Notes under the pieces: model-generated
Database searches by the model: none
What the model was told of the DNA's origin: nothing
What the model saw: the letters and a program-made list of their open reading frames with translations, nothing else
In this document: in pieces, positions 43,786 to 50,097 of the stretch
Layout of the letters: each line of letters starts with the position of its first letter
Position numbering within the stretch: the first letter of the stretch is position 1
Translations under genes and position numbers: made by a program
Assembly: GCA_963833985.1 (NCBI GenBank)
Contig: CAWIAD010000002.1
Coordinates: 3,808,001-3,872,000 of the forward strand
Direction of reading: 5' to 3'
Origin: an uncultured Planctomycetaceae bacterium
GTDB taxonomy: Bacteria > Planctomycetota > Planctomycetia > Isosphaerales > Isosphaeraceae
DNA length: 64,000 nucleotides

Positions 43786-45321
43786 ATGCTCGCCAAGCTT
43801 TTTTCCTACACGCTCATCGGTATCGACGCGGCCCCAGTGGAGGTCGAGGTCGACGTCTCGGCCTCGTCGATGCCCAAGACCGTGCTGGTGGGCCTGGCGG
43901 AAGCGGCGGTCAAGGAGAGCACCCACCGCGTCGAGCGCGCCATTGTGAATTCGGGCTTCCGCCGGCCGACCGACCGGATCGTCATCAACCTCGCCCCGGC
44001 CGACGTCAAGAAGGATGCCAACGGCTTCGACTTGCCGATCGCGCTGGGGTTGCTGCTGGGCAGTGCGCAGGTGGCGTATGACCGACCCGGAAACTTCGCG
44101 ATCGTCGGCGAGCTGGCGCTCACCGGCGAGACGCGCCCGGTGAAGGGGATCCTCTCGATGGCCCTCCAGGCGGTGATCGAGGGCCGCGACGGCATCCTTG
44201 TTCCCACGGCCAACGCCTCGGAGGCCGCCGTGGTCGAGGGGCTGAGCGTCTATCCCGTGGGCAGCCTCGCCGAGGCCGTCGCCTTCCTCTCCGGCCAGGT
44301 CGACATGGACCCGGAATCCGTCGACCTGGAGGAGCTCTTCGCCCAGCACTCGCACCTGGACGAGGACTTCGTCGACGTGAAGGGCCAGGACTACGCCAAG
44401 CGGGCCCTGCTGATCGCCGCGGCCGGCTGCCACAACGTGCTCATGATCGGTCCGCCGGGCACCGGCAAGACGCTCCTGGCCAAGCGCCTGCCCACGATCC
44501 TGCCCCCGCTCACGCCAGGCGAGAGCCTGGAGACCACCCGCATCTACAGCGCGATGGGAAGGCTTCAGCCGGGTCAGTCGCTCATGGCCGTGCGCCCGTT
44601 CTGCACGCCGCACCACTCGATCAGCGACGCGGGACTGGTGGGCGGCGGCAATCCGCCCCAGCCCGGACAGATCTCCATGGCCCACAAGGGCGTGCTCTTC
44701 CTCGACGAGATGCCCGAGTTCAACCGCAAGACGCTGGAGGTGCTCCGTCAGCCGCTGGAGGAGGGCAAGGTCACCATCAGCCGGGCGATGAACAGCTCGA
44801 CCTTCCCCGCCGACTTCATCCTGGTCGCCGCCATGAACCCGTGCCCATGCGGCTACAGGTCGGATCCCCGCCGGGCTTGCTCATGCACTCCGCCGCAAGT
44901 GGAAAAATACCTCAGCAAGATCTCCGGTCCGCTCCTGGATCGCATCGATCTGCACGTGGAGGTGCCGGCGGTCCCCTTCACGCAGCTTGCCGAGATGCCG
45001 CCGGGTCCGCCCTCGAGCGACTTCCGCGCCCAGGTGCTGGCCGCGCGCGAGCGGCAAACGAAGCGGTTCGGCCACAAGGGGACGCAGGTCAACGGCCGGA
45101 TGACCCCGCGCCAGATCAGGAAAGTGTGCCAGCTTCGGCCCGAGGCGATGTCCATCTTGAAGGCGGCCATGGAAGAGCTGGGCCTCTCCGCACGTGCTCA
45201 CGACAAGATCCTGCGGGTGGCGCGGACCATCGCCGACCTGGAAGACTCCGCCGAGATCCAGCCCCAGCACATCGCCGAGGCGGTGGGATATCGGTCGCTC
45301 GACCGCAGCGTGTGGATGTGA
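43786..45321 (+). CDS. comM: YifB/ComM Mg-chelatase-like AAA+ ATPase, intact copy
   Basis: [60 protein letters not shown]. Confidence 0.95.
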   Translation: MLAKLFSYTLIGIDAAPVEVEVDVSASSMPKTVLVGLAEAAVKESTHRVERAIVNSGFRRPTDRIVINLAPADVKKDANGFDLPIALGLLLGSAQVAYDRPGNFAIVGELALTGETRPVKGILSMALQAVIEGRDGILVPTANASEAAVVEGLSVYPVGSLAEAVAFLSGQVDMDPESVDLEELFAQHSHLDEDFVDVKGQDYAKRALLIAAAGCHNVLMIGPPGTGKTLLAKRLPTILPPLTPGESLETTRIYSAMGRLQPGQSLMAVRPFCTPHHSISDAGLVGGGNPPQPGQISMAHKGVLFLDEMPEFNRKTLEVLRQPLEEGKVTISRAMNSSTFPADFILVAAMNPCPCGYRSDPRRACSCTPPQVEKYLSKISGPLLDRIDLHVEVPAVPFTQLAEMPPGPPSSDFRAQVLAARERQTKRFGHKGTQVNGRMTPRQIRKVCQLRPEAMSILKAAMEELGLSARAHDKILRVARTIADLEDSAEIQPQHIAEAVGYRSLDRSVWM

Positions 45322-45341
45322 TGGTCGGGCAGGCAGACGAC

Positions 45342-45350
45342 TGTTAGAAT
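45342..45350 (+). promoter_or_regulatory. Extended -10 promoter candidate for the TA pair
   Basis: TGtTAGAAT 25 bp upstream of the relE-like ATG, followed by GAAGGAG. Confidence 0.45.
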
Positions 45351-45374
45351 TCAGGAAGGAGAGTGAGTCTCGGA

Positions 45375-45659
45375 ATGCCCTACGAGATCCGTTACTCGAA
45401 CGAGGCAGTCGAGCAACTCAGGAGGCTCAGGGTCTTCGACCGAACCGCGATTCTCGATCAGATAGAGCAGGTTCTGAGAGTAAATCATACGATCGTGAAC
45501 AAGTCGCGAGTCAAGCAGCTTCGCGAGCCCGCACCGACTCAATATCGACTTCGGGTCGGCGAGTTCCGCGTCTTCTACGCCGTGGCAGAAGAGGCCGTCC
45601 TCATCATTCAGGTGTTCAGCAAGCAAGATTCGATCGACTACCTCGGAGAATCGCCATGA
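45375..45659 (+). CDS. RelE/ParE family toxin
   Basis: YEIRYSNEA...YRLRVGEFRVFY. Confidence 0.85.
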   Translation: MPYEIRYSNEAVEQLRRLRVFDRTAILDQIEQVLRVNHTIVNKSRVKQLREPAPTQYRLRVGEFRVFYAVAEEAVLIIQVFSKQDSIDYLGESP

Positions 45660-45910
45660 CCACACAGCCTGTCAGTGATCCGAATACGCCGATCGGCGAC
45701 ATCATCAAGGCCGCTGGCTCGCAGGGGATCGTGTTTGAATCCGAGGGTCAAGGGCGTTTTGCCCTCCTGCCGCTCGATGATGACGTGATCGATCTGCTCA
45801 TCGAGCGAAGTCCGAAGTTCCGCGCGGACTGTCAGGAGATCCGCGATCGTATGAACTCGGGACAGTTCCAGACTCACGAGGACCTCAAAAGGCAACTGCT
45901 TGGAGAGTGA
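45656..45910 (+). CDS. Putative antitoxin
   Basis: 84-aa acidic ORF coupled by ATGA overlap to the toxin. Confidence 0.7.
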   Translation: MTTQPVSDPNTPIGDIIKAAGSQGIVFESEGQGRFALLPLDDDVIDLLIERSPKFRADCQEIRDRMNSGQFQTHEDLKRQLLGE

Positions 45911-46030
45911 CTCTGGGAGCCCCAGTGGGACTGCGCCTTGCCTCCGAAAGCTGCCCCATGACGGACACGTTCAGGGTGGGAAACAAATTCCCCAGGGTTC
46001 GCAGCCTGCGACGACAATCAGGCATGTCCC

Positions 46031-47510
46031 GAATGCCGCGAAGTTAATTTTAACTAATTGTGCCATTTGATCTTGCGCCATGGGTGAGGCTCCGGGCATC
46101 CTGTGGGAAGTACCAGGACCCACAGTTGCTGGAGGGAGCCCCACCCATGCCGCCTCGCATCATCCCTATTCTCGATCGACTGCGCCAAGATATCGCCGCG
46201 GGATTGTCCCGGGAGACGATCGAAGAAGCCTGCCGCCAGGCGAAACACCGCTGGCGGAATCGCGTTCTCGACCCCGCGACGACCATTTATCTGTTCCTTC
46301 TCCAGGTCCTTCATGGCAACACGGCTTGTCGCCACGTGGTGCACTTCGGCGCTTGGACCTTCACCGACAGCGCCTACTGCCTGGCGCGAAAGCGGCTTCC
46401 GCTGGCCGTCTTCGACTGGCTCGTGGAGCGGACCGCTGCCGCCGTGCGGACTGCTTCGGATGGCGCGCGGTGGCTCGGGCACCGAATCTGGGTCGTCGAC
46501 AGCTCCAGCTTCTCCATGCCGGACCAACCAGAACTGCAACGTCACTTCGGCCAACCCAGCGGTCAACGCAAGGGCTGTGGCTTCCCGGTGGCGAAATGGC
46601 TGGCCCTCTTCGACGTCACCACCGGCATGCTTCTGCGTTCGAGGACGGCCCCTTTGCGGACCCACGAGATGTCCCAGGTTGGCCCGATCTCCGACGGCCT
46701 GGAGCCGGGAGACATCGTGCTCGGTGACCGCGGATTTTGCTCGTATGCTCATCTGGCGATATTACTGCAACGCGGTCTGCATGCGGTTTTCCGCGTGCAC
46801 CAGCAGCAGATCGTCGATTTCACGCCGGGTCGTCCGATGGCCAGGAGGAAGGGTCCGTACCCCAGGCCGCAGGGTCTGCCGAGTTCGCGGTGGGTGTTGG
46901 CGCAGGGAACCGCAGATCAGATTGTCACATGGTTTAAATCGAAATCCCATCCGAAGTGGATGTCGGCGGATGAGTTCGAGGTGCTGCCCTCCGAGATCAC
47001 CGTGCGCGAGCTGAGGTACCGGGTCGAGACACCCGGGTATCGGGTGCGCGAAATCACGCTGGTCACGACTCTGTTAGACGCATCGACCTACCCGGCGACA
47101 GAGCTGGCCGAACTCTACTACAAGAGGTGGAGAGTCGAACTCAATTTTCGTCATATAAAGATTAGCATGAAGATGGATGTTCTGCGTTGCGAGACAGTCG
47201 AAGGGGTTCTCAAAGAGCTGGCGATTTTCAGCCTGGCGTATAACCTGGTAAGATCGGTCATGCTGGAGTCGGCACGCATGCGCGGCGTTGATCCGGATCG
47301 GATCGGCTTGATCGACGCGGTGCGCTGGCTGATCGGGTCCGAAGGGGGTTCTGAGCCCGCGCGGATCGTCATCAACCCATTGCGCCGTGGACGCGTCGAG
47401 CCCCGAGTCGTAAAGCGACGACCAAAACAATACATGCGGATGACTAGGCCCAGATCCGAACTCCGCAAACAGTTGCCAATGAAGCACTTCTGACTAACTT
47501 TGTGGCATTC
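46031..47510 (+). mobile_element. IS4 family insertion sequence
   Basis: IRs GAATGCCGCGAAGTTA / GAATGCCACAAAGTTA (14/16); 11-bp target duplication AGGCATGTCCC at 46020-46030 and 47511-47521. Confidence 0.92.
46147..47493 (+). CDS. IS4 family DDE transposase
   Basis: VVDSS, LGDRGF, YYKRWRVELNFRHIK (YREK motif), EPRVVKRRPK. Confidence 0.92.
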   Translation: MPPRIIPILDRLRQDIAAGLSRETIEEACRQAKHRWRNRVLDPATTIYLFLLQVLHGNTACRHVVHFGAWTFTDSAYCLARKRLPLAVFDWLVERTAAAVRTASDGARWLGHRIWVVDSSSFSMPDQPELQRHFGQPSGQRKGCGFPVAKWLALFDVTTGMLLRSRTAPLRTHEMSQVGPISDGLEPGDIVLGDRGFCSYAHLAILLQRGLHAVFRVHQQQIVDFTPGRPMARRKGPYPRPQGLPSSRWVLAQGTADQIVTWFKSKSHPKWMSADEFEVLPSEITVRELRYRVETPGYRVREITLVTTLLDASTYPATELAELYYKRWRVELNFRHIKISMKMDVLRCETVEGVLKELAIFSLAYNLVRSVMLESARMRGVDPDRIGLIDAVRWLIGSEGGSEPARIVINPLRRGRVEPRVVKRRPKQYMRMTRPRSELRKQLPMKHF

Positions 47511-47590
47511 AGGCATGTCCCCCTCGACCTCTCCTTCTCCGGAACGACAGAACAGAGGCGATATCCCGCCTCAAGAAATTAGCTCAGTCG

Positions 47591-47911
47591 ATGGAACAGA
47601 ACGTCAGCACCTTGAGCAGTGCCGAGAAGAAGCTTGAGGAAATTCAAGTGCGAGCAAGAGCGGCGGCTCAAATCCTCAATCGACTCGCTGCGGCCCTCGA
47701 ACTTTCCAATAAGCTTGGAGGGGGCGGCTTTTTCGGAAATTATCTGCTCTTGAACCAATTTGACGCAATGCAGTTGTCCAGTAATGTGAGAACTATTGCC
47801 ACGGATGCAAACAACAAGCTTGAGGAAGTCGGGCGCGTTCTCCCTCAAGAAAGGCAACGCCTGAACAATCTGAAGACCAATCTTAGGACAATTTTTAATA
47901 TTGACATATAA
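47591..47911 (+). CDS. Hypothetical helical protein, AT-rich, possibly N-truncated
   Basis: 106-aa ORF visibly lower in GC than its flanks; frame stays open upstream to the IS end. Confidence 0.5.
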   Translation: MEQNVSTLSSAEKKLEEIQVRARAAAQILNRLAAALELSNKLGGGGFFGNYLLLNQFDAMQLSSNVRTIATDANNKLEEVGRVLPQERQRLNNLKTNLRTIFNIDI

Positions 47912-47942
47912 TAACATGCCTAAGACAGGTCTTGCGTGGAGG

Positions 47943-48422
47943 CTAGGGAATCATCGGCCCGATGGGGCCGGGCCTAAACACACTGCGAAGGATCGCCACA
48001 ACCTCCTCGCCGGTCACCTCGCGGCGGTCCAGGCGTAGCAGGGCGTCGGCCAGCGCCTCAACATGTCGCCAGTACATCTCCAGGTACAAGGCGGTCCGAG
48101 CGGCCATCCGATCGAGATAGGACTCAACCCCCTCCCGCCCGGCATGCGGGATGAGATAGATCAGCCCGGCGAGGTCCGCCGGGTTGAGGTGCTTGCGCGG
48201 GCAGCGTCCCCGGAAACGAGATTCCGCAAGCTCCCCGGCGAGGGAGATCAGGGCCTCCCGCTCGGCGAGAGCGCGGCACCTCGGTTCTCGGAGATCGAGG
48301 TCGGTGGGGAGAGGGGACAGCACGACGCATCCGGCCTCTACCCTGTACTTCGGGTCGGCCCCCAATCCGTTCGCGACGTCGGGTAACAGCGAGATCACGC
48401 TGCAAAGTTCTGGGGACGCCAT
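47943..48422 (-). CDS. Hypothetical protein resembling a stand-alone peptidase M41 C-terminal fold
   Basis: ALISLAGELAE...WRHVEALADALL...VTGEEVVAIL; no HExxH seen; start uncertain. Confidence 0.5.
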   Translation of the reverse strand: MASPELCSVISLLPDVANGLGADPKYRVEAGCVVLSPLPTDLDLREPRCRALAEREALISLAGELAESRFRGRCPRKHLNPADLAGLIYLIPHAGREGVESYLDRMAARTALYLEMYWRHVEALADALLRLDRREVTGEEVVAILRSVFRPGPIGPMIP

Positions 48423-48962
48423 ACCCAATTCGATCACGCTGGAATCGACCGAGTCAGGATCGTCACCAGTAGAGCATGCGGTGAACGCCCGCACCTCTCC
48501 GCTTCGCAAGCGCACTCCGGCCGACGTCAAGAAGGATGCCAACGGCTTCGACTTGCCCATCGCGCTGGGGTTGCTGCTGGGCAGTGCGCAGGTGGCCTAT
48601 GACCGCCCCGGAAACTTCGCGATCGTCGGCGAGCTGGCCCTTACCGGCGAGACGCGCCCTGTGAAGGGGATCCTCTCGATGGCCCTCCAGGCGGTGATCG
48701 AGGGCCGCGACGGCATCCTGGTCCCCACGGCCAACGCCTCGGAGGCCGCCGTGGTCGAGGGGCTGAGCGTCTATCCCGTGGACAGCCTCGCCGAGGCCGT
48801 CGCCTTCCTCTCCGGCCAGGTCGACATGGACCCGGAATCCGTCGACCTGGAGGAGCTCTTCGCCCAGCACTCGCACATGGACGAGGACTTCGTCGACGTG
48901 AAGGGCCAGGACTACGCCAAGCGGGCCCTGCTGATCGCCGCGGCCGGCTGCCACAACGTGCT

Positions 48963-49170
48963 AACATTGTGGTCGATTACACCCTCTCTGGTTGATTCGT
49001 TCTGGAGATCAGCAATGGACCTTCTGTTTTTCTTGGCGTGTGCCGTTCTCGGTGCTGGGTCTCTCGTTTCCCACTCGCTTTTGCGAATTGCGAAGGCGTT
49101 GGAAGAGAGGAATCGGCTCGAAAGTCGGCAGACGCAGCCGTGATGTCAATACTGGCGGCTGCAACCTGCT
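48963..49170. mobile_element. 208-bp mini integrative element inserted at the HNVL|MIG codons of comM
   Basis: Absent from the intact copy; CAACnTGCT at both junctions; inverted symmetry around the CT dinucleotide. Confidence 0.65.
49015..49143 (+). CDS. 42-aa single-TM peptide inside the mini element
   Basis: MDLLFFLACAVLGAGSLVSHSLLRIAKALEERNRLESRQTQP; GGAG RBS at 49004-49007. Confidence 0.55.
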   Translation: MDLLFFLACAVLGAGSLVSHSLLRIAKALEERNRLESRQTQP

Positions 49171-50097
49171 CATGATCGGTCCGCCGGGCACCGGCAAGAC
49201 GCTGCTGGCCAAGCGCCTGCCCACGATCCTGCCGCCCCTCACGCCCGGCGAGAGCCTGGAGACCACCCGCATCTACAGCGCGATGGGGCGGCTCCAGCCG
49301 GGTCAGTCGCTCATGGCCGTGCGCCCCTTCTGCACTCCGCACCACTCGATCAGCGATGCGGGGCTGGTGGGCGGCGGCAATCCGCCCCAGCCCGGACAGA
49401 TCTCCATGGCCCACAAGGGCGTGCTCTTCCTCGACGAGATGCCCGAGTTCAACCGCAAGACCCTGGAGGTGCTCCGTCAGCCGCTGGAGGAGGGGAAGGT
49501 CACCATCAGCCGGGCGATGAACAGCTCGACCTTCCCCGCCGACTTCATCCTGGTCGCCGCCATGAACCCGTGCCCCTGCGGATACCGCTCCGATCCCCGC
49601 CGGGCTTGCTCGTGCACTCCGCCGCAAGTGGAAAAATACCTCAGCAAGATCTCCGGCCCGCTGCTGGATCGCATCGACCTGCACGTGGAGGTGCCCGCCG
49701 TCCCCTTCACGCAGCTTGCCGAGATGCCGCCGGGTCCGCCCTCGAGCGACTTCCGCGCCCAGGTGCTGGCCGCGCGCGAGCGGCAAACGAAGCGGTTCGG
49801 CCACAAGGGCCCCCAGGTCAATGGCCGCATGACTCCGCGGCAGCTTCGCAAGCTGTGTGCCCTCAAGCCAGAGGCGATGACGATCCTCAAGGCCGCCATG
49901 GAGGAGCTCGGCTTATCGGCGCGCGCTCACGACAAGGTGCTGCGCGTGGACCGCACCATTGCCGACCTGGAAGACTCCGCCGAGATCCAGCCCCAGCACA
50001 TCGCCGAAGCGGTCGGCTACAGGTCGCTCGACCGCAGCGTGTGAATGTAGAATTGTGTTCGGAACCGAGGTCTTCCCGTACAGAGGAGCGCTCGCTG

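Follow-up and report, generated by a model that had tools for sequence, protein, structure and literature searches.

The window, a 64,000-nt stretch of the genome under study (G000:C2:3808001-3872000), carries two copies of comM/yifB on the plus strand. The first, at 43786..45321, is intact and encodes 511 amino acids with the Pfam domains ChlI, Mg_chelatase and Mg_chelatase_C. It contains an empty attB-like site centred on the CT dinucleotide at 44440-44441, whose pseudo-palindromic symmetry of 11/17, claimed in the first-pass annotation of this DNA, was reproduced on recounting. The second copy is split and, as the first-pass annotation had overlooked, also truncated at its 5' end, starting near residue 70 (48516). 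Its 5' piece (48516..48962, approximately residues 70-219, 436/447 positions identical to the intact copy) ends with the B arm and CT, and its 3' piece, from the B' arm onward, occupies 49171..50044 (810/882 identical). Comparison of the two copies delimits a single-gene cassette between these pieces (48963..49170, plus strand), 208 bp long including its trailing CT. The cassette opens with a conserved left end, a P'-like arm at 48963..48984 with the family consensus GACRTTGTGGWCAATTNNACCC, which recurs across genomes of the family. A GGAG word resembling a ribosome-binding site (49004..49007), an ORF for a 42-aa peptide (49015..49143) and the right end (49152..49170) follow on the same strand; the right end, a B-like arm plus CT, fits CCGGCGGNCTGCACATC-CT and lies in register with the comM left arm.

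Several other features surround the comM copies. A ParE-like toxin ORF follows the intact copy (45363-45659), and a homologous stretch trails comM copies in other genomes. A DDE_Tnp_1 insertion sequence lies at 46031-47513, with about 10 further copies in G000. Outside the window, G000:C2:3888460-3888559 (minus strand) is a 100-bp comM 3' tail whose downstream flank matches that of the intact copy, and at G000:C2:3951537-3951673 (plus strand) a degenerate comM segment from around these codons precedes an ATPase-like gene; a 45-bp comM-like match at C2:3979618 proved to be an FtsH Walker A. The stretch preceding the truncated copy (48430..48518, plus strand) is 88.8% identical over 89 nt to loci of G063, a genome whose own residue-70 comM copy also holds a cassette at the CT, and is similar to L097 and L100. 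Copies truncated at residue 70 have this upstream sequence in common in three independent assemblies (loci: window 48430-48518, L052, L097 and L100), and in all three a cassette sits at the CT; the upstream sequence may mark another fixed breakpoint or belong to a mobile landing-pad module. A full comM followed by several 3'-partial copies with cargo between them is a frequent pattern, of which window positions 43786-50044 are one instance and others lie in G063:C10, G056:C3 and C9, G051:C17, G064:C14, G089:C3, G020:C16, G010:C15 and G024:C96. The partial copies start near residues 70, 160, 200-216, 250-300 and 341-360, a pattern that suggests repeated insertion of comM-tagged DNA at the locus.

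The extra 208 bp in the second comM copy are exact and interrupt the HNVL|MIG codons at their CT, as first described. The junction CTs lie at 48961-48962 and 49169-49170; TGCT is present at both, so the cut point is ambiguous by 4 bp from this pair of copies alone. The left junction is an inverted repeat about its CT (symmetry 8/10 and 9/17), again as claimed, and the right junction has a symmetry of 10/17. The insert has a GC content of 53% versus 65% for the genome, and it is single-copy in G000, where the best left-end site scores 39.1 bits and the runner-up 15.4. Neither a sigma-70 promoter nor a terminator was matched in positions 48300-49300, and an Rfam search returned no match. The concern that the insert might be an assembly chimera was dispelled, as contigs of two public sequencing runs carry the same unit. 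A 673-nt contig (run X4) matches 48964-49170 only (record positions 154-360, 11 differences), and a 304-nt contig (run X2) matches 48960-49166 and is unlike the window beyond that. Judged by these alignment limits, the cassette also occurs in other DNA with its ends unchanged and comM absent from its flanks. Joints in public contigs that skip the 208 bp were considered as evidence of excision and rejected: they come from the intact comM of other organisms at 80% likeness.

The only gene of the insert is the hydrophobic 42-aa ORF that the first-pass annotation had noted, with its GGAG word 7 nt ahead of the ATG. It encodes a predicted single-pass membrane peptide, with hydrophobic residues 1-19 (mean hydropathy 1.94) followed by a charged tail. 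Five homologs of 42-43 aa (P0004-P0008) were retrieved from other assemblies; the peptide was not found in the 120 other family genomes searched, has no Pfam or PADLOC match that would point to the toxin or exclusion function conjectured in the first-pass annotation, and in an atlas search fell among unnamed clusters only (best 0.87). The first-pass annotation had also missed that the frame of the truncated comM is stop-free into the peptide ORF (open frame 48184-49143). A second frame (48992-50044) opens within the cassette and continues into the comM 3' half. Judging from these frames, comM-peptide fusion products are possible.

A DNA search of 40 relatives yielded junction matches only, extending about 22-30 bases beyond the left junction and leaving the cassette body unmatched. 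Other genomes show the left-end consensus CT|GACRTTGTGGWCAATTNNACCC too, both at this comM position and within tandem arrays. A strict left-end pattern matched 14 of 121 family genomes, with no match for the reversed-pattern control; matches in G084 (coding) and G064:C8 were dropped from this list as chance or doubtful, and split comM loci were additionally retrieved from G051, G124, G135:C8, G064:C14 and G074, placing cassette-type sites in about 15 of the 121 genomes. With three mismatches allowed, 10 selected genomes yielded 44 sites, against 1 for the control. At the HNVL|MIG codons of comM the left end is again present in G007, G009 (twice), G024, G063, G064, G124, G135 and G074, as well as in the metagenome loci L097/L098/L100 and L099. 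Scanning a collection for the comM junction returned 6 loci, all titled Planctomycetota (Isosphaeraceae, Planctomycetaceae, Fuerstiella), and a metagenome scan returned 9, of which 4 were at comM. Nothing convincing was found beyond the family in a phylum-wide sample of 401 genomes; 7 single matches outside G000 were attributed to chance, none lying beside comM or a large serine recombinase (LSR) gene and most falling within coding sequence.

To describe the units themselves, we used the 35 of 63 sites that have another site or a comM B' arm within 1.5 kb. These bounded units span 143-1404 bp (median approximately 350; mostly 150-600 bp), and in 30 of the 35 a same-strand ORF covers at least half of the unit, compared with 7/35 for the antisense control and 198/700 random genome windows. 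The ORF starts 35-96 nt from the site, and in 4 units the stop codon is completed across the next junction. Column counts over the 35 units gave the right-end consensus CCGGCGGNCTGCACATC-CT, which copies the comM left (B) arm in register, and the left end begins with 10 bases that form an inverted repeat of that same arm. The site comprises two arms of approximately 17-22 bp each, symmetric about CT: over 9 bp, the 63 sites have a mean symmetry of 4.5 about the dinucleotide, as against 1.4-2.4 with the centre moved by 1-2 bases. As expected of LSR integration, the site has two symmetric arms and the target is not duplicated beyond the core; attP-derived arms at both ends, also expected of it, were not seen, as the right ends of cassettes are B-like, and inverted P-type ends occur only in large elements of G009 and G096.

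Three features depart from this plan, of which the hybrid arms and the inverted-B arm count against an LSR model. Hybrid right arms in G124 and G056 are comM-like for the first 9-11 bases, with a distal part that is the cassette's own; one site in G007 has an AG core instead of CT; and four arrays (L022:297, L024:1104, L028:1303 and L030:1806) end in CT|GACRTTATGCCC(G/C), the reverse complement of the comM left arm (an inverted-B arm), followed by unrelated DNA.

Cassettes also stand in tandem arrays of up to seven sites, both within comM and elsewhere. Units are common to different genera at 81-95% identity with differing neighbours: a 357-bp unit occurs in G024, G056 and G066 (93-95%), a 223-bp unit in G056 and G066, a 264-bp unit in G059 and L092, and a 237-bp unit in G007 and G124. 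Two arrays of G056 carry the same two units in opposite order. The first-pass annotation had proposed a minimal satellite or relic using an integrase in trans, and the part of this that stands is a non-autonomous element with att-like ends at a comM site of serine integrases. A solitary satellite or relic, however, understates the finding, because the insert belongs to a family that forms tandem, shuffled arrays.

The arrays outside comM lie in low-GC variable regions that have accessory genes in common. A gene for a small repeat-domain protein (motif AVNEAWTAAG) lies just 3' of four of them (L044:15979-16500, L040, L043 and L114) and is also present at G000:C2:3633238-3633939. In G000 this gene, another small one and a phosphotransferase-like gene mark a low-GC stretch (C2, 3.624-3.642 Mb) that has array-associated genes and no recognisable site (best 1.3 bits). 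An atlas search with the accessory protein near the arrays returned unnamed clusters only. After the last site of one array (L047; G060:C3, approximately 848900-849150) there are short tandem repeats (about 70 bp), and sequence after the G024 site at 153270 resembles them.

The cargo is largely anonymous. After exclusion of duplicates and doubtful calls, 32 of 44 candidate ORFs were scanned, giving 2 Pfam matches above cut-off (SMI1/KNR4 and DUF1493) and 2 weak candidate-defence matches with PADLOC. A membrane-like segment was predicted in 12 of 30 cassette ORFs.

The first-pass annotation had suggested looking for serine recombinases between similar ends, and LSR elements were found at the cassette codon of comM in three genomes (G096, G010 and G402), not all with ends that match. 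In G096 a 36-kb prophage with head- and tail-type genes sits at the same CT (C2:29120-65401) and encodes a 567-aa LSR (Resolvase plus Recombinase) just within its left end; the prophage ends match the cassette motif weakly (15.6 bits), and two extra motif-like half sites lie 45 and 125 bp inward of the right end. The G010 element abuts the comM 3' half, and its end is the cassette motif (29.5 bits with the right-arm model); its LSR gene, which reads as broken and truncated in the assembly, is the sole one whose element end matches the motif. A related LSR in G402, from another family, uses the same comM codon with arms that do not match the motif, and an LSR in G090 is at a different comM position. 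Larger elements with the same left end as the cassettes include an 18-kb element in G009, which bears the motif as inverted ends, and the G009 C39 and G007 second units. The LSR elements at comM agree with PMC10083194, according to which 12.4% of predicted site-specific LSRs target comM-type (Mg-chelatase) genes.

The comM LSR clade was found in 8 of 121 family genomes, many of them incomplete, and in none that bears arrays; it was not found in G000 with the queries used. Next to the arrays of the genomes tested there is no recombinase gene of the serine, tyrosine or IS110 type. G000 separately contains eleven near-identical copies of an insertion-sequence-like LSR of about 620 aa (e.g., C1:775570-777444). 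Among viral contigs, the attP-type and junction patterns had no matches and the intact G096 LSR (P0003), used as query, retrieved no locus; three motif matches, of low score and inside a large phage gene, were taken as chance.

Judging from sequence comparisons, we consider it probable that the insert belongs to a family of mobile single-gene cassettes occupying the comM CT site and forming tandem arrays, and that a comM-targeting LSR acts on it in trans. We infer the action in trans, since no such LSR was found in G000 or in the array-bearing genomes. Each unit consists of a P'-like left arm, a ribosome-binding site, one ORF and a B-like right arm ending in CT. As a circle, a cassette would have its ends joined in a B-CT-P' junction. 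Once inserted at comM, it would be bounded by B-CT-P' on the left and by a regenerated, usable B-CT-B' on the right, so that further cassettes could stack. Recombination between any two junctions would then excise or reorder cassettes. The LSR would arrive with a visiting prophage or island, most cassettes would be promoterless and dependent on upstream transcription, and the likely benefit would be an exchangeable stock of small proteins of envelope and immunity type. Neither a circle junction nor a same-strain empty site was seen. In G000 the outcome is one cassette in a spare, truncated comM copy, with no switching of competence.

Recombination between two B-P' junctions is non-canonical for phage LSRs in the absence of a directionality factor, and IS110-family recombinases also use a CT core. 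The cassettes could instead be mobile through an IS110-family (bridge-RNA) recombinase, resident insertion-sequence-like serine recombinases or a host factor; consistent with this, the array genomes lack the comM-clade LSR, and all five tested have IS110-family genes as well as other serine recombinases. Those genes never adjoin arrays in the genomes tested, however, and the two-arm CT-symmetric site coincides with the end of one comM-resident LSR element, so we regard a different enzyme as unlikely. Immobility is a further alternative, in which larger comM-integrated LSR elements decayed by internal deletion and the arrays are fossils of successive insertions that now spread only via larger islands or homologous recombination. 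The larger elements with the same left end would fit such a history, as would the location of the non-comM arrays in variable regions with common accessory genes and the lack of a resident enzyme. Against it, the units fit single ORFs tightly and their right ends are conserved and B-like; identical boundaries, differing neighbours and swapped order are not expected of random deletion, and we judge immobile remains improbable.

Two other readings concern what the insert does and what kind of cassette it is. The first-pass annotation had suggested an excisable switch governing comM, and hence natural transformation. Precise excision would restore the reading frame, and in G007, G009 and G124 cassettes likewise sit after a 5' comM piece. 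At the present locus, however, this is largely refuted: an intact comM is present 4.5 kb upstream, and without residues 1-69 the interrupted copy would remain truncated even after excision. An intact copy is also retained near the interrupted one in G063, G064, G124 and G135, and many arrays are outside comM, making a switch highly improbable. That these are ordinary integron cassettes, with attC sites and a tyrosine integrase, which happen to sit in comM is hardly credible. In size, one-ORF content, shared orientation and kind of cargo (SMI1/KNR4, DUF1493) they resemble integron cassettes, but GTTRRRY was found at 0/63 junctions and RYYYAAC after the stop in 1/33. The gap from stop codon to junction is -2 to 59 nt in 26/30 units and 27 nt here, mostly too short for attC; the fold of the insert is no more stable than that of shuffled versions (z -0.54); and PF00589 (tyrosine recombinase) is absent near arrays in 5 genomes and from the window ORFs scanned.

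Returning to mobile cassettes served by a comM LSR, a bolder form of the proposal, which we hold tentatively and with slightly less than even confidence, is that Isosphaeraceae-type planctomycetes have evolved a convergent "serine integron". B-CT-P' cassettes would hijack the integrases of comM phages, phage arrival would reshuffle or release envelope and immunity genes, and recombination between like junctions would escape the attP x attB rule. The cassettes in comM and their shuffled tandem rows constitute an integron-like family of soil planctomycetes that is apparently undescribed; in literature searches outside subscription journals and supplements, no description of single-gene LSR-type cassettes at comM was found. 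If the proposal is true, the gene-by-gene capture and shuffling that characterise integrons evolved a separate time on serine-recombinase chemistry and can operate where no enzyme is resident. Arrays of this kind would escape attC-based searches, which would leave a pool of small uncharacterised genes unexplored, and an LSR that regenerates its target and stacks cassettes would be of interest for genome engineering. With the site sequences in hand and P0003 as an intact candidate enzyme, the hypothesis can be tested directly.

Three known systems come closest to the comM cassettes. Integron cassettes have one ORF per unit in a common orientation, form shuffled tandem arrays, encode mostly small uncharacterised proteins, and occur in arrays without an integrase. 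The comM cassettes resemble them in their single co-oriented ORFs, shuffled tandem arrays and a pool that extends across genera; unlike integrons, they have neither attC hallmarks nor IntI, and their two-arm CT site is of a double-stranded type and copies comM. With the LSR prophages and islands in Mg-chelatase/comM genes (PMC10083194), they have the target gene in common. They agree in codon with the LSR elements of G096, G010 and G402, and their left end is the att arm of such an element (G010), whereas they have no recombinase and a right end that is B-like rather than P-like. SCCmec and SCC-like elements (CcrAB/CcrC), as described in PMC11470126, likewise have serine-recombinase att sites between tandem units in one target gene. 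According to the same paper, CcrAB can excise any combination of tandem SCC-like units, and units without their own recombinase are moved in trans and excised singly or combined, as is predicted for the comM cassettes. SCC-like units there are approximately 17-26 kb, multi-gene and beside a resident ccr element, whereas a comM unit typically carries one gene in 150-600 bp. An SCC element is defined by its rlmH (orfX) target and ccr genes; here the target is comM, and in the genomes tested the arrays have no recombinase beside them.
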